A DNA stretch of 64,000 nt from Escherichia coli (GTDB lineage: Bacteria; Pseudomonadota; Gammaproteobacteria; Enterobacterales; Enterobacteriaceae): assembly GCF_003790525.1 (NCBI RefSeq), contig NZ_CP033635.1. One strand, given 5' to 3'. Both the position numbers and the translations under genes were made by a program. The notes under the pieces were generated by a model. That model searched no databases, was not told the DNA's origin, and saw nothing but the letters and a program-made list of their open reading frames with translations. Positions 37,874-48,988 of the stretch are shown in pieces; positions within the stretch are counted from its first letter, which is position 1; every line of letters starts with the position of its first letter.

Positions 37874-38767
<894 letters not shown>

Positions 38768-38804
38768 TTACCTCATCAATCGCTTGTAGTTATATGTTGT
38801 GTTG

Positions 38805-38838
38805 TGAACATCTATCCATTTAGACGTCCAGATGTAAA
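38805..38838. promoter_or_regulatory. MetJ operator (tandem met boxes) upstream of metF
   Basis: Consecutive 8-bp repeats resembling AGACGTCT (tagacgtc cagatgta ...) 40-75 nt upstream of the metF start. Confidence 0.7.
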
Positions 38839-39145
38839 GATGAAGGAAAAGCCGAGGGGCGTCAACCGAAAAATGACCAATGATGGTGAGGAAAAATCAG
38901 GGAAGTTGAAAAAAACTCATCTTAATTAGAGGCGATAAAAGATTTCTCTATAGCGCAATCCACCTCGCACGTTTTGACTGATATTCTGACAACACAGCGA
39001 CACCTGGGCTTATTCGAAAAACAACGTCCTGCCACCGGATGGTGATGCTAAGGCATCTGATTCGGCCTGCGCCCTCGCGTAGGCCGAATACTGGATCTGC
39101 AAAATCAACTGGTAACAAACAGATGAATCAACTCAATACGTACTT

Positions 39146-40705
39146 TTACTTGATATCTTTCACGCGCATACCGTTGATCTGTTCATCCGTGATGGTGTTA
39201 CCCGCTTTGAAGTAATCAACCACGGCGTGATAAACGTAATAACCGCCCGTTGTGTTACGCGCTTTCCCTTCGGTAAAGGCGGTAAAACCATCTCCACCAT
39301 CAGCAAGGAAACTCTGAGTAGCAATGTGGTAAATCGTCGCATCTTCAATGGGTTTGCCATTCAGAGTCAGCGTGATTACCCGCTGACCAACCGGCTTACT
39401 GCTGTCGTACTTCATTTCCAGGCCTTTCGATACCTGTAAAACGCCATTACTCAAACTTGCGCCGTGTTCCATCAAACTGCGTAATTGTTTACCCGTGAGA
39501 TCCATCGTCACCAGTTCGTTGGGGAACGGGAAGGTACTGATGACGCCACCCATCGTAATTGCACCCGCCGGGATCTCATTGCGAATCCCGCCAGAGTTGG
39601 TTAACGCCAACTGGGTATTTTTACCCGCCGCTGCCAGCAAAGCGTCTGCCGCCAGGTTCCCGAGAGAAGCTGATTCACCATAGGCACGTTTTAGTTCAAC
39701 CGGCGATTGCGCCACCGTTTGTTGCACGACTTCATCCAGCTTTTTGTTCCAACTATCAATCACCTGTTTCGTTTGCGGATCGGGCTTCCACTCATCGGCG
39801 TAAAGGGTTTTAAGCTCGAAGTTTTTCACCGTAAAAGTGTGCGGCTTCTCTTTGTAGTCGAGAACCAGTTTACCGACATCAATCCCGCCGCTGTCAGTGG
39901 AGAGGATTAACGTATTGCCGACTTTAATCGGTTCCGGCGTACCCACATGTGCATGCCCGGTGATCAAAATATCCAACCCTTTCACCTGACTTGCCGTCTG
40001 AATATCTTTATCCAGTGCGCGACGCACATCCGTGCCTCCCATACTGGACTGGCGGGCCGGAACACCTTCGTGGATCAGGGCGACGGTTAGATCAACCTTG
40101 CCTTTGAGTTCATCGATATAACGTTGTAGCCATTTAATTTCATCACGCGCCTCAATACCCACTCGCGTTGCCGCAGATACCGTATCATTAAAGGCAAATA
40201 CACCGTGCAAACCAATCACGCCAATTTTCACGCCGTCTTTTTCAATGATGGTATAGGGCTTATCCCAGAATGATTTACTGCTGTTCTGATAAAAAACATT
40301 ACCCTGCACAATCGGGAATTTTGCCTGACTCAACTGTAATAACGTATTGTCCCAGCCGTGATCAAATTCATGATTACCTATAGTGACCGCATCGAATGGC
40401 ATGGTATTCATAATATCGATAATCGCCTTGCCTTTAGTCAGGCTGCTGATATACGGTCCGGTAAAATAGTCACCCGCATCAAAAAACCAGGTCGCTTTGT
40501 TTTTAGCTTTTTCTTGTTTAACAAGCGTAGTGATATTTGCCCAGCCGCCAATATCCCGTTTACCGTCAGCAATCCACGGCACTTTATAAGGCTCTACATG
40601 TGCATGGAGGTCGTTGGTATAAATGATGGTGACATCTTTGGCGCAAGCCCAAAACGGCAGTGTTAATGCGATACCCGCAGCAAGCATTTTAATTTTCATA
40701 AACAA
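39146..40705 (-). CDS. secreted bifunctional metallophosphatase / 5'-nucleotidase (UshA/CpdB family), paralogue 1
   Basis: 519-aa ORF with N-terminal signal peptide, calcineurin-like motifs ([23 protein letters not shown]) and a C-terminal 5'-nucleotidase-type domain. Absent from this position in K-12 as I recall it. Confidence 0.85.
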
Positions 40706-40831
40706 TCCCTTCCAGTGAGATAAAGGATTGCTACATTACGTTCTGAAAGGCTTTTTTATGTGAGAATACTCACATCCAGAGGCGATAACTGTAGGACAAA
40801 ATCAACGACCTTATGAAATCGTTGGTGATAT

Positions 40832-41959
40832 ATGTCAAATCTGTTTGCGATTAATGTCTGTAAAACGTTCGGTTGTCGAAATTTGGGATTGGCCTCATCG
40901 GAAGATTACAGTTGGCCAGACTATAAACTGGGTTTTCCGGCACTGCACTGCCAGGCATGCGGAAGTTACCCCCCTTTGTTTGATGAACAACAATTTCGTG
41001 ACTGGTTGTCAGTTCACATGACTGCGTGTGCCATAGAAACAGGGCATTTTTGTCCATCATGCTATTGTAAAGAAAAGATTTTTTATGGCCACAACCCGCA
41101 GGGAACACAACGCGTTCAATGCCGTTCATGCAAAAAAGTCTGGACTCCGAAACAGCAGCCAGCAAGAGAAATTACGTATCCCCAGTCCATTGAAACCGTT
41201 CAACTGTTCATGCCCTTTCAAGGAGCCAGCGCAGTACAAAAGCTCTATGTTTTAGTCAGTCTTGACGCCACTCGTGGCAACATCCTTCATCTCTCCACGA
41301 ATTATACGCAACATCAGACAGGAGACAGTCTGCGGTACAGTTACAGAGGCAATACAGAACCAACTGAGCACCATAGCGATATTGTGCAGAGGGTAGATAT
41401 GCGTGAAGCGCAATTCTTGCGCCGGAGCCAGTTCGATGAAATTCAGTATGGCAGTGCTGTGCTCAAGCGCAACGGCAAGGGAGCCATACTACGCCCGGTT
41501 ATCACGGCACACGGGCATTTCAGAATACTGAAAATCCGCTTTCCACATGTCAAAACGCATATCATTTCACACGAATGTTTTCTGAGAGGCGCAATTATTA
41601 CAGCCTGGGCAGATCAGTTCCGCCAACAACAAGGCGAACTTTGGTTCGTAGAAGAAGAAATCAGCGACCGTAACGCTGATATTCCCTGGCATTTTCAGGG
41701 AACGACATACCATGGTTGGTGGCAAAATCAGTGGCAACGCTGGGGGCAGGGGAATAACAGCAAGATGGTCTGCCTGCTCACAGGAGTCTCCTTAGAAAGG
41801 GGCGCAAATGTTTCTCTGGCAACCAGTCGTTGCTTTATCACATGGCTGACAGACCAACACGACTTTACCCAAAGCGCGTTATTATCCGCAGGTCGCGTAA
41901 CGAAAATGCTGACCTCACTGGCGTTAAAATACAATGAATCGCTCACTCCATCTTGTTAG
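40832..41959 (+). CDS. hypothetical Cys-rich protein with N-terminal zinc-ribbon-like motifs
   Basis: 375-aa ORF divergent from paralogue 1; first 100 residues contain C-x4-C, C-x2-C, CPSC-x-C and C-x2-C spacings; remainder unassignable by eye. Confidence 0.55.
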   Translation: MSNLFAINVCKTFGCRNLGLASSEDYSWPDYKLGFPALHCQACGSYPPLFDEQQFRDWLSVHMTACAIETGHFCPSCYCKEKIFYGHNPQGTQRVQCRSCKKVWTPKQQPAREITYPQSIETVQLFMPFQGASAVQKLYVLVSLDATRGNILHLSTNYTQHQTGDSLRYSYRGNTEPTEHHSDIVQRVDMREAQFLRRSQFDEIQYGSAVLKRNGKGAILRPVITAHGHFRILKIRFPHVKTHIISHECFLRGAIITAWADQFRQQQGELWFVEEEISDRNADIPWHFQGTTYHGWWQNQWQRWGQGNNSKMVCLLTGVSLERGANVSLATSRCFITWLTDQHDFTQSALLSAGRVTKMLTSLALKYNESLTPSC

Positions 41960-42188
41960 TCAATACACTCGACAAACGACCATAAATTAATGGGATCACT
42001 ATTTCTCATTTAATTAAATATATGAATATATGACTGAAAAATATAATCACAGTCAATGTTTAATTAATAACATTATTTGTTACCAAGATCACATAATACT
42101 TTCCTGACCTATGCTTACATAAAAATAAGACACGGTGTTCCTTTTATTTAAATAATTCAACCAATGTAACAACCCCTATCAAGGAGGG

Positions 42189-43741
42189 ATGATGAGAACT
42201 GTATTTACGACTTTATCAGTCATATTCAGCGTGATGTTTTCTCACAGTATACTAGCTCAGGACGTTACTATTTATTATACGAATGATATTCACGCACATG
42301 TCAATCCGGCAAAAATTCCCGCTGTTGATAAGAACAGACTTGTAGGTGGTATGGCTAATATTGCAGGCATCGTTAATGAAGCGAAGAAAAAAAACAAAGA
42401 TGTCTTTTTCTTTGATGCAGGCGACTATTTTACCGGTCCGTATATCAGTACCCTGACCAAAGGTGAAGCTATTATTGATATCATGAACACCATGCCCTTT
42501 GATGCGGTGTCCGTTGGTAATCACGAGTTCGATCACGGCGTGCCCAATATGGTATCTCAGTTATCAAAAGCAAAATTCCCCATTCTGCTGGGAAATATTT
42601 ACTACACCGATACAAATAAACCAGTTTGGGATCATCCGTGGACCATTATCGAAAAAGATGGTTTAAAGATTGGTGTGATTGGATTGCATGGTGCATTCGC
42701 TTTCTATGATACAGTCGCGGCAAAAGCACGTGAAGGCGTAGAAGCCAGAGACGAAATTAAATATTTAAATAAAGCACTTGCAGAATTAAAAGGTAAAGTC
42801 GACATTACCGTTTTGCTAATTCACGAAGGTGTTCCGGCGCGTCAATCAAGCTTTGGTAGTAAAGATGTGGAGCGGCTACTACAGGCAGATATTGAGACAG
42901 CTAAAAAAGTGAATGGTGTTGATGTCTTAATTACCGGTCACGCACATGTCGGAACACCGCAACCAATAAAAGTTAATAACACATTAATTGTATCTACCGA
43001 TGCATACGGCACCGACATCGGAAAACTTGTGCTTGATTACAATCCGAAAACAAAGAAAATTGATAGTTATAATGGTGAGTTAATCACCATCTTTGCAGAT
43101 CAATTTAAACCTGACACCATCGTTAAAATACTATCGATAAATGGAGCGTAAAGCTTAACAAAATAACACAGGAAGTTGTCGGCCATTCTCCCGTAGTTTT
43201 AACACGTGAGTATGGCAGTTCTTCTTCTACCGGTAATCTTATTCTGGATGCAATGATGGAAAAAACACCTGATGCCATTGCCGGATTTCAAAATAGCGGT
43301 GGGATGCGAGCTGATTTTCCTAAAGGTGATATCACACTGGGAGATGTTATTAGCACATTCCCCTTTAATAATGACCTCATCGAGATGGATTTGACGGGCC
43401 GCGATCTCAAATCGTTGATGACGCATGCAACCAATCTAACTAACGGTGTGTTACAGGTTTCAAAAAGCGTTGCGGTTGTCTATGACAGCAAAAAACCACT
43501 CAACCAACGGTTAATCTCTTTCACCATTAACGGCAAACCCGTGGAAGATAATCAAACATATCGTATTGCCACGCACTCCTTTTGTGCCAGTGGTGGTGAC
43601 GGTTTTGAAGCATTTTTGAATGGAAAAAATGTGAAGACGATACCGGGAACAACCTCGGCGGAATCTATCATCGATTATTTCAAAAATCATAAACCTGTCA
43701 CCCCAGACTTAACTAAACGAGTCATGGACGTCGCCAAATAA
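42189..43741 (+). pseudogene. frameshifted UshA-family 5'-nucleotidase, paralogue 2
   Basis: ORF 42189..43151 (320 aa; signal peptide and metallophosphatase motifs) stops at taa 43149-43151; homology to paralogues 1 and 3 continues in the +2 frame from about 43127 through ORF 43253..43741. The frame break lies near 43128-43140. Confidence 0.75.
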
Positions 43742-43775
43742 AATATCATTTATCAGTCTATATATTTAACAAGGA

Positions 43776-45401
43776 ATGCGAATGAAAACAGTGCAGCGTA
43801 CTTTACTTGCCGCAACATTGCTGACTATTTTTTCGGTCTCAGTCATGGCGCAGGATGTCACGATTATTTATACAAATGATCTTCACGCTCATGTGGATTC
43901 TTATAAAGTGCCGTATATCGCAGACGGAAAACGCGACATTGGCGGCTTTGCCAATATATCTACTTTAGTAAAACAGGAGAAAGCGAAAAATAAAGCCACC
44001 TTTTATTTTGATGCTGGAGACTATTTCACCGGCCCTTATATCAGCAGTCTGACAAAGGGCGAAGCAATAATTGACATTATGAATACCATGCCTTTTGACG
44101 CAGTATCAATCGGTAATCATGAGTTTGACCATGGCTGGGATAATGCCCTGCGACAATTAAGCAAAGCGAATTTTCCTGTTTTATTGGGCAATGTTTATCA
44201 TAAAGAGAGTGAGAACCCCTTCTGGAACAAGCCCTACACCATCCTGGAAAAAGATGGCATCAAGATTGGTATTATTGGGCTACACGGCGTATTTGCATTT
44301 AATGATACGGTCTCGGAGCTCTCTCTCCAGGGACTCGATAATGACAATAATAACCGCTTTGATAAATCTTCCGAGACCCTTAAGAATCAGGGGATTGAAG
44401 CACGTGATGAAGTGAAGTATTTGCAGCATTATATCGACGAGTTACGTGATAAGGTTGACCTCACTGTGGCGCTGGTTCATGAAGGCGTTCCGGCGCGTCA
44501 GTCCAGCATTGGCAATACAGATGTTAGACGCGCTCTTGATAAAGATATTCAAACCGCTAGCAAGGTGAAAGGATTGGATATTCTGATTACCGGGCATGCC
44601 CACGTCGGAACGCCAGAACCAATCAAAGTCGGCAACACCTTAATCCTTTCAACTGATAGTGGAGGTATCGATATTGGTAAATTAGTCCTTGATGTCAACC
44701 CTACAGCTCGTACCCATAAAATGAAGAGCTTTGAGCTGAAAACAGTTTATGCCGATGAATGGATACCCGATCCAACGACACAAAAAGTTATCAATGGCTG
44801 GAATAAAAAACTGGCGGATATTGTACGCCAACCAGTGGGTGAATCATCGATTGCATTAACTCGCGCCTATGGTGAGTCATCGCAACTAGGCAACCTGTTT
44901 ACCGATGCAATGCTTGTCGCTGCTCCGACTGCACAGATTGCATTGATAAACTCCGGCAGCTTACGTGCGGATATAAATGCAGGCACGATTACCTTTGGCG
45001 ACATTACCAGTACATTCCCCTTCAAGAATGAACTTACTGAAATGGATCTCAGCGGTAAGGATCTGCGTAACCTACTGGAACACGGGGCATCGCTTACCAA
45101 TGGCATCCTGCAAATGTCAAAAGGCGCAGAAATGCGCTATACCCCGCAGAAACCAGTAGGTCAGCGCATAGTATCTTTTAAAATTAATGGTGAAGAGATC
45201 GTTGATACGAATATTTACCATGTTGCAACAACGACTTTCCTTGCACTGGGGGGCGATGGTTTTCTGGCATTCAAAGAAGGGAAAAATGTTCAGGTCCGCG
45301 CCGGAAATAACATGTCCGATGTCGTGATCGATTATTTGAAGAAAGGCCACAAGATTACGCCTGCACAGGTAAATGAAATGCGGGTGGACGTTAGCAAATA
45401 A
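43776..45401 (+). CDS. secreted bifunctional metallophosphatase / 5'-nucleotidase (UshA/CpdB family), paralogue 3
   Basis: 541-aa ORF; signal peptide (…SVMAQD), NDLHAH / GDYFTG / GNHEFDHG motifs; closely similar to paralogue 1 apart from a ~20-aa insertion. Confidence 0.85.
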   Translation: MRMKTVQRTLLAATLLTIFSVSVMAQDVTIIYTNDLHAHVDSYKVPYIADGKRDIGGFANISTLVKQEKAKNKATFYFDAGDYFTGPYISSLTKGEAIIDIMNTMPFDAVSIGNHEFDHGWDNALRQLSKANFPVLLGNVYHKESENPFWNKPYTILEKDGIKIGIIGLHGVFAFNDTVSELSLQGLDNDNNNRFDKSSETLKNQGIEARDEVKYLQHYIDELRDKVDLTVALVHEGVPARQSSIGNTDVRRALDKDIQTASKVKGLDILITGHAHVGTPEPIKVGNTLILSTDSGGIDIGKLVLDVNPTARTHKMKSFELKTVYADEWIPDPTTQKVINGWNKKLADIVRQPVGESSIALTRAYGESSQLGNLFTDAMLVAAPTAQIALINSGSLRADINAGTITFGDITSTFPFKNELTEMDLSGKDLRNLLEHGASLTNGILQMSKGAEMRYTPQKPVGQRIVSFKINGEEIVDTNIYHVATTTFLALGGDGFLAFKEGKNVQVRAGNNMSDVVIDYLKKGHKITPAQVNEMRVDVSK

Positions 45402-45413
45402 TAAAAAAATTAT

Positions 45414-45447
45414 AATGCCATTCATTCACTGAATGGCATTATTTTCT
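45414..45447 (+). terminator. intrinsic terminator after paralogue 3
   Basis: Hairpin aatgccattca ... tgaatggcatt followed by attttc. Confidence 0.65.
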
Positions 45448-45478
45448 CTAAATCAACAATAGATAATGAGATATATTT

Positions 45479-46339
45479 ATGTGTATAAAAAAGCACGGGA
45501 TAGCTTTATCGATTCTATTAATACCTTGCATTGGAAACGCTCAGGAAATTAAAAGTGAGGAAGGCTGGTTACATCAAAGCTTGAATGTCATTGGTCGCAC
45601 AGACTCTCGCTTTGGCCCAAGGCTGACTAACGACCTCTACCCTGAATATACTGTAGCAGGAAGAAAAGACTGGTTTGATTTTTATGGTTATGTTGATCTA
45701 CCAAAATTCTTTGGCGTCGGCAGTCACTATGATGTTGGGATCTGGGATGAGGGCTCACCACTATTTACGGAAATAGAACCTCGGTTTTCCATTGACAAAT
45801 TGACCGGATTAAATCTTGCGTTCGGCCCTTTTAAAGAATGGTTCATTGCAAACAACTATGTCTATGATATGGGTGACAACCAGTCATCCCGGCAAAGTAC
45901 ATGGTATATGGGGCTTGGTACAGATATCGACACGGGTCTACCAATTAAGCTTTCTGCCAATATATACGCCAAGTATCAGTGGCAAAACTATGGTGCCGCT
46001 AATGAAAATGAATGGGACGGATATCGATTCAAAATAAAATATAGCATTCCTCTTACCCATTTATTCGGAGGGCGATTGGTATACAATAGTTTTACTAACT
46101 TTGATTTTGGCTCCGATCTTGCGGACAAATCACACAATAATAAACGAACCAGTAATGCTATTGCTTCAAGCCATATCCTTTCCCTGCTATATGAACACTG
46201 GAAATTTGCATTTACACTACGTTATTTTCACAACGGTGGACAATGGAATGCTGGGGAGAAAGTTAACTTCGGAGATGGTCCATTTGAATTAAAAAACACA
46301 GGATGGGGAACCTATACTACTATTGGTTATCAATTTTAA
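45479..46339 (+). CDS. Tsx-family nucleoside-specific outer-membrane channel
   Basis: 286-aa ORF with signal peptide; strong similarity to E. coli Tsx ([69 protein letters not shown]-terminal ...GYQF). Confidence 0.88.
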
Positions 46340-46518
46340 ATCAGGTGATGTTTTAGATATTTTTACTTAATGCCATTTTGTAATTGTCATAAATAACTTC
46401 ACCATTCACACTGTGAATTCATCGCTCAACACAAAAGCCCCCTTATTACCGGGGCACTGACCAAAGGCAAAATGACAATCAATCACCACCTCCGCAGGAG
46501 GTGGTTTAGAGGTGACAA

Positions 46519-46548
46519 CAAAAGCTGGCAACTGCCAGCTTTTGTTCA
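46519..46548. terminator. bidirectional intrinsic terminator between the Tsx-like gene and metL
   Basis: Inverted repeat caaaagctggca / tgccagcttttg flanked by A/T runs on both strands. Confidence 0.7.
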
Positions 46549-46555
46549 ATAATCA

Positions 46556-48988
46556 CTACAACAACTGCGCCAGACGGTTAATATCCGACTGAATCGCCCC
46601 GGCGGTGACATCGCGCCCTGCACCTGGCCCGCGGATCACCAGCGGGTTGTCGCGATACCAGCGGCTTTCGATGGCAAAGACGTTATCGCACGGTAGTAGT
46701 GATGCCAGCGGATGGTCTTCTCGCACCGCTTCCACGCCTACTCGCGCTTTGCCGTTGGCATCGAAACGCGCCACGTAGCGCAACACCAGCCCCATTTCAC
46801 GGGCCGCTTCCAACCGTTGTACCATCTGCTCATTAAGTTCATCGCCATTTTCAAAGAAATGGTCGATGCTTCCACCTTCGCAATGGGTTGGCACCAGTGA
46901 TTCAACACGCACCTGGTCCGGTTCAATGTTGTAACCCGCTTCACGCGCCAGAATCACCAGCTTGCGCATCACGTCTTTGCCGGAAAGGTCATCACGCGGA
47001 TCAGGCTCGGTTAAGCCCTGCTGCCACGCCTGATCCACCAGCTCGGTAAACGGCACGCTACCGTCGAATTGCAGGAACAGCCAGGAGAGCGTGCCAGAGA
47101 AGATCCCACTGATCGACAAAATGGTATCGCCGCTGTCGATCAGATCGCGCACGGTATGGTTGATCGGCAAACCCGCACCGACAGTGGCATTGTACAGCCA
47201 GTGACGCCCGGTTTTTTCGAAGGCGTCGTGGATCTGGCGATATTTATTGCTGTCGCTGGCTCCCGCCAGTTTGTTGGCGCTGATGACGTGGAAACCGTGG
47301 CTGGCAAAATCGAGATACTGATCAGCAAGCTGCTGGCTGGCGGTAACGTCCAGCACCACTAAATCATCATACGGATGGGCGCGCATCCACAGGAACAGCG
47401 ACTCTTCATCCTGCTCGACCGCTTCATCGTTGAAGAAGGCTAACGCGCGGCTGGCGTCCAGCCCGTCATAGCTCAACAGGCTGCGGCGGCTGTCCACCAC
47501 GCCTGCCAGCACAAATTCAAAGCCGGTACGCGCCGAAAGCGTGCTCTGCTCACGGGCGAACAGTTCCAGCCAGCGGGAACCGATATTGCCCTTGCCGAAC
47601 AATACCAGGCCGATGCGTTTTTCCGCGCGAAAGACGGACTGATGCAGACCCTGAATCAGGCTTTCGGTCGGCCCGGTGCGCAGTACTGCCACCAGGCTGA
47701 TGCCGTCATCGGACTGCCAGGTAAATTCGACCGGCTGGCCTTTCAGTTGCTGCCAGAAGCGGTGGCAATGCAGCGGGTTACGGGTTACGCCCGCCCCAAC
47801 CATCGCCACCAGCGCCAGCCCCTGACGCAGGCGCAGTTCGCCAGGTAATCCCGCTTCGTCGAGAATTTTCAGCGCACTGTCAGCGACTTCTGAGGTGTAG
47901 CAAAATTGCAGCAACTGGCGATCGTTATGTACGCCAACCGCCAGTGGGCGCACCTGAGCACGTTTCAGGATCTGGTCGATCTCTTTATGCGCCAGTTTGA
48001 AATCCTGACTGGCGGGCACCTGAAACTCAATCAAACAGACATCATCGTGGCTGGTGACAATACGCGCGCCAGTACCTGAGGCCAGCACGCGTTCAATGCG
48101 CGTGGAACCTTGATCCGGCGTGTAGCTACAGCGCAGTTGCAGGTCGATTTCACTACCGGATACTGGCTGTAAAGTACGGGCGTGAAGAACGGGGGCCGCC
48201 AGACGCGCCAGTTCACTGGCTTCATCAAGACGCAGCAATGGCAGCAGACAGGCATCTTTCACTTTACGCGGGTCGGCGCTGTATACCCCGGCGACGTCGC
48301 TCCAGATGGTTACGCGAGAAACACCCGCCAGCGCACCGATTTGTGTCGCGGAATAGTCGGAACCGTTACGCCCCAGCAGCACCGTTTCACCGGCGTTGTT
48401 ACGGCTGATAAACCCGGTCACCACCAGACGTTTGCCCGGATGTTGTACCAGTAGCTGTTGCAGCAACGGGTAAGAAAGCCCTTCATCAACCTGCGGCTGC
48501 GCGGCGCGTTCAGCGCGTAAAAACTCGCGGGCATCAAGCCAGGCCGCTGGCAGCCCTTGTTGATTAAGTACCGCAGACATCAGGCGCGCCGACCACACTT
48601 CACCGTGGCCCACCACTTCTGCATACACCGCATCGTTAATACCGCTGTCGAGCAGCGCCGCCAGGCGTTCCAGATCGCTGACAAAAGCGCTAATGAGGCT
48701 ATCGGCTTCTTCAGCGGGTAGCAGGCCGCTAATCAGATCGCACTGATAACGACGTAGCGTTTGTTGAACCTGATGCGCAGAGAGACGATCGGTCTGGCTT
48801 AGTTTCAACCAGTTAATCAACTGGTTAGTGGTGCTACCGGCGGCGGAAACCACCATCATATCGTCAGGCTGAGAGTACTCCGCCATAATGCCCGCGACAC
48901 GCAAATAACACTTCACATCAGCCAGACTACTGCCACCAAATTTATGCAGTTGACGACCTTTCGCCCCTGCCTGCGCAATCACACTCAT
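46556..48988 (-). CDS. metL: bifunctional aspartokinase II / homoserine dehydrogenase II
   Basis: 810-aa ORF directly downstream of metB. Confidence 0.95.
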   Translation of the reverse strand: MSVIAQAGAKGRQLHKFGGSSLADVKCYLRVAGIMAEYSQPDDMMVVSAAGSTTNQLINWLKLSQTDRLSAHQVQQTLRRYQCDLISGLLPAEEADSLISAFVSDLERLAALLDSGINDAVYAEVVGHGEVWSARLMSAVLNQQGLPAAWLDAREFLRAERAAQPQVDEGLSYPLLQQLLVQHPGKRLVVTGFISRNNAGETVLLGRNGSDYSATQIGALAGVSRVTIWSDVAGVYSADPRKVKDACLLPLLRLDEASELARLAAPVLHARTLQPVSGSEIDLQLRCSYTPDQGSTRIERVLASGTGARIVTSHDDVCLIEFQVPASQDFKLAHKEIDQILKRAQVRPLAVGVHNDRQLLQFCYTSEVADSALKILDEAGLPGELRLRQGLALVAMVGAGVTRNPLHCHRFWQQLKGQPVEFTWQSDDGISLVAVLRTGPTESLIQGLHQSVFRAEKRIGLVLFGKGNIGSRWLELFAREQSTLSARTGFEFVLAGVVDSRRSLLSYDGLDASRALAFFNDEAVEQDEESLFLWMRAHPYDDLVVLDVTASQQLADQYLDFASHGFHVISANKLAGASDSNKYRQIHDAFEKTGRHWLYNATVGAGLPINHTVRDLIDSGDTILSISGIFSGTLSWLFLQFDGSVPFTELVDQAWQQGLTEPDPRDDLSGKDVMRKLVILAREAGYNIEPDQVRVESLVPTHCEGGSIDHFFENGDELNEQMVQRLEAAREMGLVLRYVARFDANGKARVGVEAVREDHPLASLLPCDNVFAIESRWYRDNPLVIRGPGAGRDVTAGAIQSDINRLAQLL

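Follow-up and report, generated by a model that had tools for sequence, protein, structure and literature searches.

Which function, if any, belongs to a long and very AT-rich gap in the middle of an accessory nucleotidase islet? The question is raised by the 229 bp at positions 41960-42188 (the spacer) of a stretch of Escherichia coli DNA, 64,000 nucleotides (nt) in length (assembly GCF_003790525.1, contig NZ_CP033635.1), which we refer to as the window. The spacer is bounded on the left by the stop codon of an open reading frame (ORF) of 375 amino acids (aa; 40832-41959), here called hyp375, and on the right by an ATG at 42189, and beyond it lie plus-strand genes for two nucleotidases and a Tsx-like nucleoside channel. 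The answer towards which we lean, with a little more confidence than doubt, is that the spacer provides the promoter and a short leader for a nucleotide-scavenging module gained by horizontal transfer, that it is targeted by H-NS and StpA, and that it is probably dependent on cyclic AMP (cAMP) and CRP. In the RefSeq annotation the islet sits between metF (37874-38764, minus strand) and metL (46556-48988, minus strand), and it is laid out as follows.

39146..40705, minus strand: ntA, third nucleotidase, with a signal peptide; divergent from hyp375
40832..41959, plus strand: hyp375, 375 aa, candidate local regulator; its stop codon opens the spacer
41960..42188, plus strand: AT-rich spacer, putative promoter and leader of ntB-ntC-tsx and 5' edge of a nested low-GC module
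42192..43741, plus strand: ntB, periplasmic Metallophos/5_nucleotid_C nucleotidase, frameshifted in the window
43776..45401, plus strand: ntC, the module's second nucleotidase
45479..46339, plus strand: Tsx-like nucleoside channel gene (c4894 in strain CFT073)

Composition and origin of the spacer

A preliminary description of this DNA had picked out the spacer as very AT-rich, and its composition bears this out. The G+C content (GC) is 28.4% (71.6% A+T) against 51.5% for the window, the minimum among all 229-bp segments of the 64 kb falls at the spacer, and the 28 TpA steps within it are the window maximum (mean 10.1). Equally GC-poor segments make up 0.14% of all those of 229 bp, and every one of them overlaps the spacer or 59863-60107. 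Of the window's 28 intergenic regions exceeding 60 bp, only one has a lower GC than the spacer, namely the 77-bp gap before the tsx-like gene, inside the same module. The 'long A/T tracts' of the preliminary description exist in the form of mixed A/T runs, which reach 16 nt (42008-42023 and 42142-42157), but the longest homopolymer is 5 nt and the runs are unphased, as a search of the spacer for helical phasing of AA/TT dinucleotides (A-tract curvature) gave no periodicity. The module's non-coding gaps all have 20-29% GC, so AT-richness is not peculiar to the spacer; in other genera the gaps 5' of related ntB genes are at 25-34%. Just one other segment of the window, 59863-60107, equals the spacer in AT-richness (28.4% GC). 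It is located where a pair of hypothetical genes (about 59902-61337) begins, an insertion between rraA and zapB that resembles a further small accessory islet.

The K-12 chromosome has the empty site, with a metL-metF distance of 348 bp, at which the islet (38915-46556) takes the place of 199 bp. Some part of the islet is carried by 851 of 5426 complete E. coli genomes, and 658 of the 5426 carry the spacer, always as one chromosomal copy. The spacer alleles fall into two groups, which we take to be phylogroups F (the window type) and B2. The first comprises 97 genomes with at least 95% identity to the window, and the second 561 genomes with 88-90% identity, including 536, CFT073, UTI89, Nissle 1917, LF82, S88 and APEC O1. 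CFT073 and strain 536 have the same spacer sequence, which shares ∼90% identity with that of the window.

Gene order in related loci was surveyed using one genome per species. A short form at the same site reads metL> <hyp375 ntA> metF, with hyp375 running into the 3' end of metL, and a long form, <hyp375 ntA> ntB> tsx> ntC>, is found at other genomic sites. Homology of the window to the short form ends at ∼41922 and resumes exactly at the metL stop codon at 46556, which identifies spacer-ntB-ntC-tsx (41960-46555) as a nested module; its GC is 40.8%, compared with 52-53% in the flanking core DNA. When the F-type and B2-type alleles are compared, synonymous divergence (dS) is 0.26 for metF, 0.33 for ntA and 0.23 for hyp375, and drops over the junction to 0.079 for ntB, 0.16 for ntC and 0.076 for tsx, which supports a history of the module separate from that of its flanks. 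Horizontal acquisition of the module, as assumed in the preliminary description, is thus well supported by its accessory distribution, low GC, nested insertion and the drop in dS.

Several further observations concern the history of the islet. The dS values of metF and ntA (37874-40705) are unusually high, and metF is a core E. coli gene, which suggests that the islet flank was imported from a divergent lineage along with the islet. Escherichia coli SCPM-O-B-8794 and Escherichia sp. MOD1-EC7003 carry the short metL-metF form together with a longer nucleotidase/tsx cluster elsewhere, and these two clusters per genome indicate that the gene family has been duplicated and rearranged within Escherichia. 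Comparison of the spacer with the regions 5' of ntB in Citrobacter, Enterobacter and E. albertii gave no convincing match, the best cross-genus hit being a 17-nt AT-rich stretch with an expect value (E) of 0.005 in a tiny database. One block stands out at the left junction of the nested module, with which it coincides.

41922..41990, plus strand: 69-nt block identical in the window and strain 536, consisting of the last 12 hyp375 codons, the stop codon and the first 31 nt of the spacer

The flanks of this block differ by 9-12% between the window and 536, and the block is either a recent recombination tract or a functional element.

The islet has also been described as 'GR 31 metL..metF' of extraintestinal pathogenic (ExPEC) and avian pathogenic (APEC) E. 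coli, containing one Tsx-like ORF and three ORFs with UshA-type domains and common to B2 model strains (PMC12928451, 2026). That account covers gene content and predicted function only, whereas regulation, nesting, the spacer and the 375-aa protein are considered here.

H-NS and StpA on the islet genes of CFT073

The preliminary description had proposed silencing by nucleoid proteins such as H-NS, and targeting of the islet by such proteins has support in published chromatin immunoprecipitation sequencing (ChIP-seq) of H-NS, StpA and RNA polymerase in CFT073 (Hustmyer et al., mBio 2022, PMC9765446). All five islet genes (c4894-c4898) are in the list of H-NS- and StpA-bound genes (PMC9765446 Data set S1E), per gene and for an allele ∼90% identical to that of the window. 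The cells had been grown in rich defined medium with 0.2% glucose, and occupancy values are scaled so that the 20 highest genes average 1, with 0.07 as the threshold for calling a gene bound (PMC9765446). The lengths and order of c4894-c4898 match tsx-like, ntC, ntB, hyp375 and ntA of CFT073 exactly, and C_RS23130 is equated with c4894 by a cross-reference in a second paper (PMC5956150). The wild-type H-NS occupancies (PMC9765446) are as follows.

c4894 (tsx-like), 861 nt: 0.504
c4895 (ntC), 1620 nt: 0.260
c4896 (ntB), 1551 nt: 0.425
c4897 (hyp375), 1125 nt: 0.114
c4898 (ntA), 1554 nt: 0.117

Occupancy therefore rises 4-fold over the spacer, from 0.114 on hyp375 to 0.425 on ntB. The list of bound genes goes from c4849 to c4894-c4898 and then to c4920, without metL, metF or katG (PMC9765446), and these gaps in the list show that the H-NS-bound patch coincides with the islet. 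Deletion of hns leaves c4894-c4896 bound, and when stpA is deleted as well, c4894 and c4896 still give anti-StpA signal (PMC9765446). By the anti-H-NS measure, ∼12% of bound genes are still bound in the double deletion, and the authors credit such residual binding to the highest-affinity DNA being occupied by a third paralogue, Hfp (PMC9765446). The islet thus resembles the other targets of xenogeneic silencing in CFT073 in being low in GC, TpA-rich and lineage-specific and in having its orthologues listed; it differs in that the locus is not discussed in that study (PMC9765446) and the window allele is only ∼90% identical.

A search of the literature by CFT073 locus tags turned up only one further paper, on TosR, and no hns-mutant expression data. 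Overexpression of TosR, a PapB-family protein predicted by its authors to bind AT-rich DNA and to antagonize H-NS, raised c4894 by log2 3.3, about 10-fold (PMC5956150). The rise gives a hint that the gene is inducible. Matches to the H-NS nucleation motif TCGATAAATT with at most two mismatches are ∼2.7-fold enriched over the module and include one in the spacer (41979-41988); they were dropped as evidence for H-NS, being too weak.

Applied to the window strain, these data suggest that during growth on glucose the module would be coated by H-NS and StpA, as its orthologues are, gene by gene, in CFT073. The spacer would be the likeliest nucleation point or edge of the H-NS filament, since it exceeds the rest of the module in A+T and TpA content.

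The CRP-type site and candidate promoters

The most specific feature of the spacer, overlooked in the preliminary description, is a conserved sequence of the CRP type. It is listed here with the other candidate elements of the spacer and with a second CRP-type site, upstream of hyp375.

42078..42093, no strand assigned: CRP-type site TGTTACCAAGATCACA (TGTTAC[C/T]AAGATCACA), 9/10 core positions, centre 42085.5
42127..42156, plus strand: best conserved sigma-70 candidate, AAGACA-18 nt-AATAAT, predicted start ∼42163, leader ∼26 nt
42042..42047, plus strand: alternative -10, a perfect TATAAT, invariant, with a poor -35 and upstream of the CRP site
42052..42083, no strand assigned: longest invariant block in the spacer, 32 nt, across 9 alleles
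42181..42188, plus strand: Shine-Dalgarno sequence AAGGAGGG; likely start the second ATG, 42192
40759..40774, no strand assigned: CRP core TGTGAGAATACTCACA, without mismatch, between the divergent genes ntA and hyp375

A match of the quality of 42078-42093 occurs in composition-matched shuffles of the spacer with P of about 0.006-0.009. Conservation was assessed over 9 distinct spacer alleles, with 30 variable positions and two main lineages. Both half-sites are invariant in this set, and the sole polymorphism lies in the N6 between them (42084, C/T). Of the 14 other enterobacterial loci, 12 carry the 40759-40774 site at the corresponding position with no more than one mismatch, again with conserved half-sites and a free N6. 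The window contains three CRP matches with at most one mismatch, two of which lie in the two regulatory gaps of the islet. The conserved site in the spacer points to catabolite control, not H-NS alone, and a promoter in the spacer would probably be dependent on cAMP-CRP.

The best sigma-70 candidate has no variation in its hexamers, AAGACA (42127-42132) and AATAAT (42151-42156), whereas the 18 nt separating them vary at 5 positions. The 32-nt invariant block contains an inverted repeat, AATGTT-N8-AACATT (42057-42076), directly upstream of the CRP site. The ribosome-binding site that had been noted immediately before 42189 is real (AAGGAGGG), but it abuts that ATG, and the RefSeq start at 42192 has the more usual Shine-Dalgarno spacing and is the likelier start of ntB. 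Other kinds of element were also sought. An Rfam scan of 41700-42500 (E ≤ 1) gave no match, and the fold of the spacer RNA is no more stable than that of shuffled sequences (minimum free energy z-score -0.70). Small ORFs in the spacer (24-27 aa) were rejected, as inspection revealed no Shine-Dalgarno sequence and the 25-aa ORF is stopped early in other alleles.

The mechanism that we favour, on the basis of the site itself, its conservation and its pairing with the site upstream of hyp375, is that CRP at 42085.5 would make transcription follow cAMP-CRP, that is, carbon limitation, acting as a direct activator or as a counter-silencer. Transcription would start near 42163, from AAGACA-18-AATAAT, or at a class II start near 42127. 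The ChIP-seq experiment would then have sampled the locus under catabolite repression, when a CRP-dependent promoter would be idle. The bgl operon (PMC2646131) offers a parallel, as it too has an AT-rich catabolic control region with a CRP site and H-NS, expected to be off in laboratory glucose media. For bgl, however, the silencers, the CRP dependence and the activating mutations are experimental, whereas the spacer is known from its sequence, and the islet genes act on nucleotides rather than β-glucosides.

Several points weigh against a CRP-dependent promoter in an H-NS-targeted spacer. The best sigma-70 candidate has its predicted start ∼77 bp downstream of the CRP centre, a distance that is off the usual class I helical phase of centres at -61.5, -72.5 and so on and that a 1-bp indel between the two alleles shifts further, and a class II position (-41.5) would need a poor -10, TTACAT or TACATA. 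The promoter assumed in the preliminary description has gained a candidate with invariant hexamers, but sigma-70 consensus matches in the spacer are not in excess (2 found, 2.7 expected), and AT-rich DNA gives many spurious -10 matches. Divergence of the spacer (10.4%) is about the neutral rate of the module, so that only short motifs can be under constraint, and the chance of none of the ∼30 variable sites falling within the 22 of 229 positions that make up the CRP site and hexamers is ∼0.05, a rough binomial value estimated by hand from the allele counts. Finally, the ChIP table resolves whole genes, and it was obtained with the B2-type allele of CFT073 while the window carries the F-type.

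Some of these points are shared by the main rival explanation, which we regard as unlikely. It holds that the spacer is a passive intercistronic gap: hyp375, ntB, ntC and tsx would form one operon, transcribed from a CRP-dependent promoter at 40706-40831, and the AT-richness and H-NS binding of the spacer would be by-products of composition. The about-neutral divergence of the spacer, the lack of an excess of promoter-like sites and the equal AT-richness of the other non-coding gaps of the module fit such a scheme, as does the arrangement of the genes, since hyp375 and ntB have the same orientation and no plus-strand intrinsic terminator was found between them (40600-42400). On the other hand, 229 bp is long for a gap within an operon, and hyp375 stands alone, divergent from ntA, in every other genus. 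A passive gap also leaves aside the conserved CRP site and the promoter candidate with conserved hexamers, and the 4-fold step in H-NS occupancy from hyp375 to ntB.

If the spacer is an H-NS-targeted, CRP-dependent promoter, it would be the switch of a module for nucleotide scavenging that is associated with ExPEC and comprises three periplasmic nucleotidases plus a second Tsx channel. The carriers of the module, which include CFT073, UTI89, 536, Nissle 1917 and LF82, are presumably B2 and F strains. One prediction of the model is that glucose-rich laboratory media keep the module switched off, which would explain why its function is unknown; another is that it is expressed under carbon limitation or when H-NS is antagonized, for example by TosR. 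The model would thereby define conditions and mutants for learning the role of the module in the gut or urinary tract. The spacer itself would be a case of routine xenogeneic silencing and catabolite control, and the combination of H-NS and CRP is an ordinary one, a new instance of a familiar pattern rather than a new kind.

The upstream gene hyp375 and other islet features

Pfam gave no match to the hyp375 protein of the window, and NCBIfam gave a sub-threshold match to IS1 transposase. An alignment was built from 47 diverse relatives, taken from 140 clusters out of 1.84 billion representative proteins; 13 of the 47 match the InsA zinc ribbon, with a best E of 4e-8. A first AlphaFold model, from 11 close homologues, was unusable, with a predicted local distance difference test score (pLDDT) of 42, and the model from the 47-sequence alignment reached a pLDDT of 92.8. 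The protein is predicted from these to have InsA-like zinc ribbons and a fold like that of DDE transposases and integrases. Foldseek comparison of hyp375 with the PDB gave weak matches only, and no acidic residue is conserved at 90% or more in the alignment. PADLOC matched neither hyp375 nor the nucleotidases to any defence system.

A Metallophos/5_nucleotid_C gene is a neighbour of the hyp375 relative in four of five distant contexts, and in the fifth the neighbours are a NupC-type nucleoside transporter and a nucleoside phosphorylase. In all 13 other enterobacterial loci carrying hyp375, a 5'-nucleotidase gene or a nucleoside transporter adjoins it. The protein is probably inactive, transposase-derived and stably syntenic, which would make it a reasonable candidate for a dedicated regulator or partner. 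A bolder proposal, which we consider doubtful, is that hyp375 is a domesticated IS1-like transposase turned transcription factor for nucleotide scavenging, which together with CRP lifts H-NS silencing at both gaps when extracellular nucleotides are available.

The divergent intergenic region between ntA and hyp375 (126 bp, 40706-40831) contains elements that are invariant or nearly so over six genera: TTACGTTCTGAAAG, the CRP site, CAAAATCA(A/G)CGACC and AAATCGTTGGTG. Together, the final two make up an inverted repeat (CAACGA...TCGTTG) immediately 5' of the hyp375 start codon, a possible operator or leader hairpin. A repeat search of the spacer against this region found no convincing shared motif; the short two-copy matches, TTTTTATGTGAGAATA/TATGCTTACATAAAAA and AACGACC, could be chance.

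These observations bear on a second alternative, that a specific regulator responsive to nucleosides or nucleotides is in charge of the spacer, with H-NS as background; the regulator would be hyp375, or one of the CytR or DeoR type working with CRP as at tsx, deo and cdd. CytR and DeoR control genes of the nucleoside- and nucleotide-scavenging class in K-12. The genes downstream of the spacer belong to this functional class, and the 32-nt invariant block, with its AATGTT-N8-AACATT repeat, abuts the CRP site. For hyp375 itself the argument is its zinc ribbons of InsA type and its constant place beside a nucleotidase or nucleoside transporter gene, in 5/5 distant and 13/13 enterobacterial loci. 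Yet AACGACC, possibly a chance match, is all that the spacer and the divergent region have in common, and some genomes place a hyp375 homologue behind the nucleotidase gene within one operon, an order that fits a functional partner as well as a regulator.

At up to two mismatches the spacer has a single CRP match, so that the tandem pair 52-53 bp apart of the CytR architecture is absent, and on inspection the CytR octamer GTTGCATT is matched at 4-5 of 8 positions at best; CytR-type tandem-CRP control was rejected on these grounds. A DeoR palindrome was likewise rejected, with a match of just 10 of 16. The spacer therefore resembles the CytR/CRP promoters of K-12 (tsx-P2, deoP2, cdd, udp and nupG) in having a CRP site and, downstream, a Tsx paralogue and nucleotide-degrading enzymes, but differs in its lone CRP site and the lack of a recognizable CytR operator. 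Overall, control of the spacer primarily by such a regulator appears quite improbable.

All three nucleotidases have the Pfam domains Metallophos and 5_nucleotid_C, ntA and ntB have signal-peptide-like N-termini, and the tsx-like product matches Channel_Tsx (E 5e-70). The position of the spacer 5' of plus-strand nucleotidase genes, as given in the preliminary description, is thus right, but the first of these genes, ntB, is frameshifted in the window. The region 40800-46600 aligns to E. coli SMS-3-5 (NC_010498.1) with a single gap, and this gap, one C absent at 43125, is the sole difference from NC_010498.1 over 17.8 kb. All top-matching genomes have the C; without it the reading frame of the 516-aa ntB nucleotidase is broken, leaving two ORFs, of 320 and 162 aa. 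The missing base may reflect a genuine mutation, a difference between versions or an error.

The frameshift raises a third alternative, that the locus is cryptic and decaying, with the module permanently silenced and being lost and the function of the spacer no longer maintained. Besides the window, ntB is frameshifted in strain MS1737 and ntA in strain MFDS1022581, one genome has an IS1 insertion within the islet, and the near-neutral divergence of the spacer is also what this explanation calls for. We nevertheless find it very hard to accept: the ratio of non-synonymous to synonymous divergence for ntB, ntC and tsx is about 0.07-0.14, most of the 658 genomes have intact copies of the genes, motif conservation in the spacer speaks for a function that has been kept, and c4894 is inducible.

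The tsx-like gene has two peculiarities of its own. The NCBI annotation pipeline PGAP labels it in SMS-3-5 (window 45479-46339) as a partial pseudogene without its C-terminus; at 286 aa, however, the ORF is complete, its product shares 97.6% identity with the intact protein of strain 536, and the label is probably an annotation artefact. The second lies in the 77-bp gap (22% GC) between ntC and the tsx-like gene.

45412..45442: hairpin with a 13-bp stem, a perfect palindrome, ATAATGCCATTCA...TGAATGGCATTAT

This palindrome resembles a terminator on both strands, and the tsx-like gene may therefore be a separate or attenuated transcription unit, which fits with c4894 being the only gene of the module in the TosR top-25 list.
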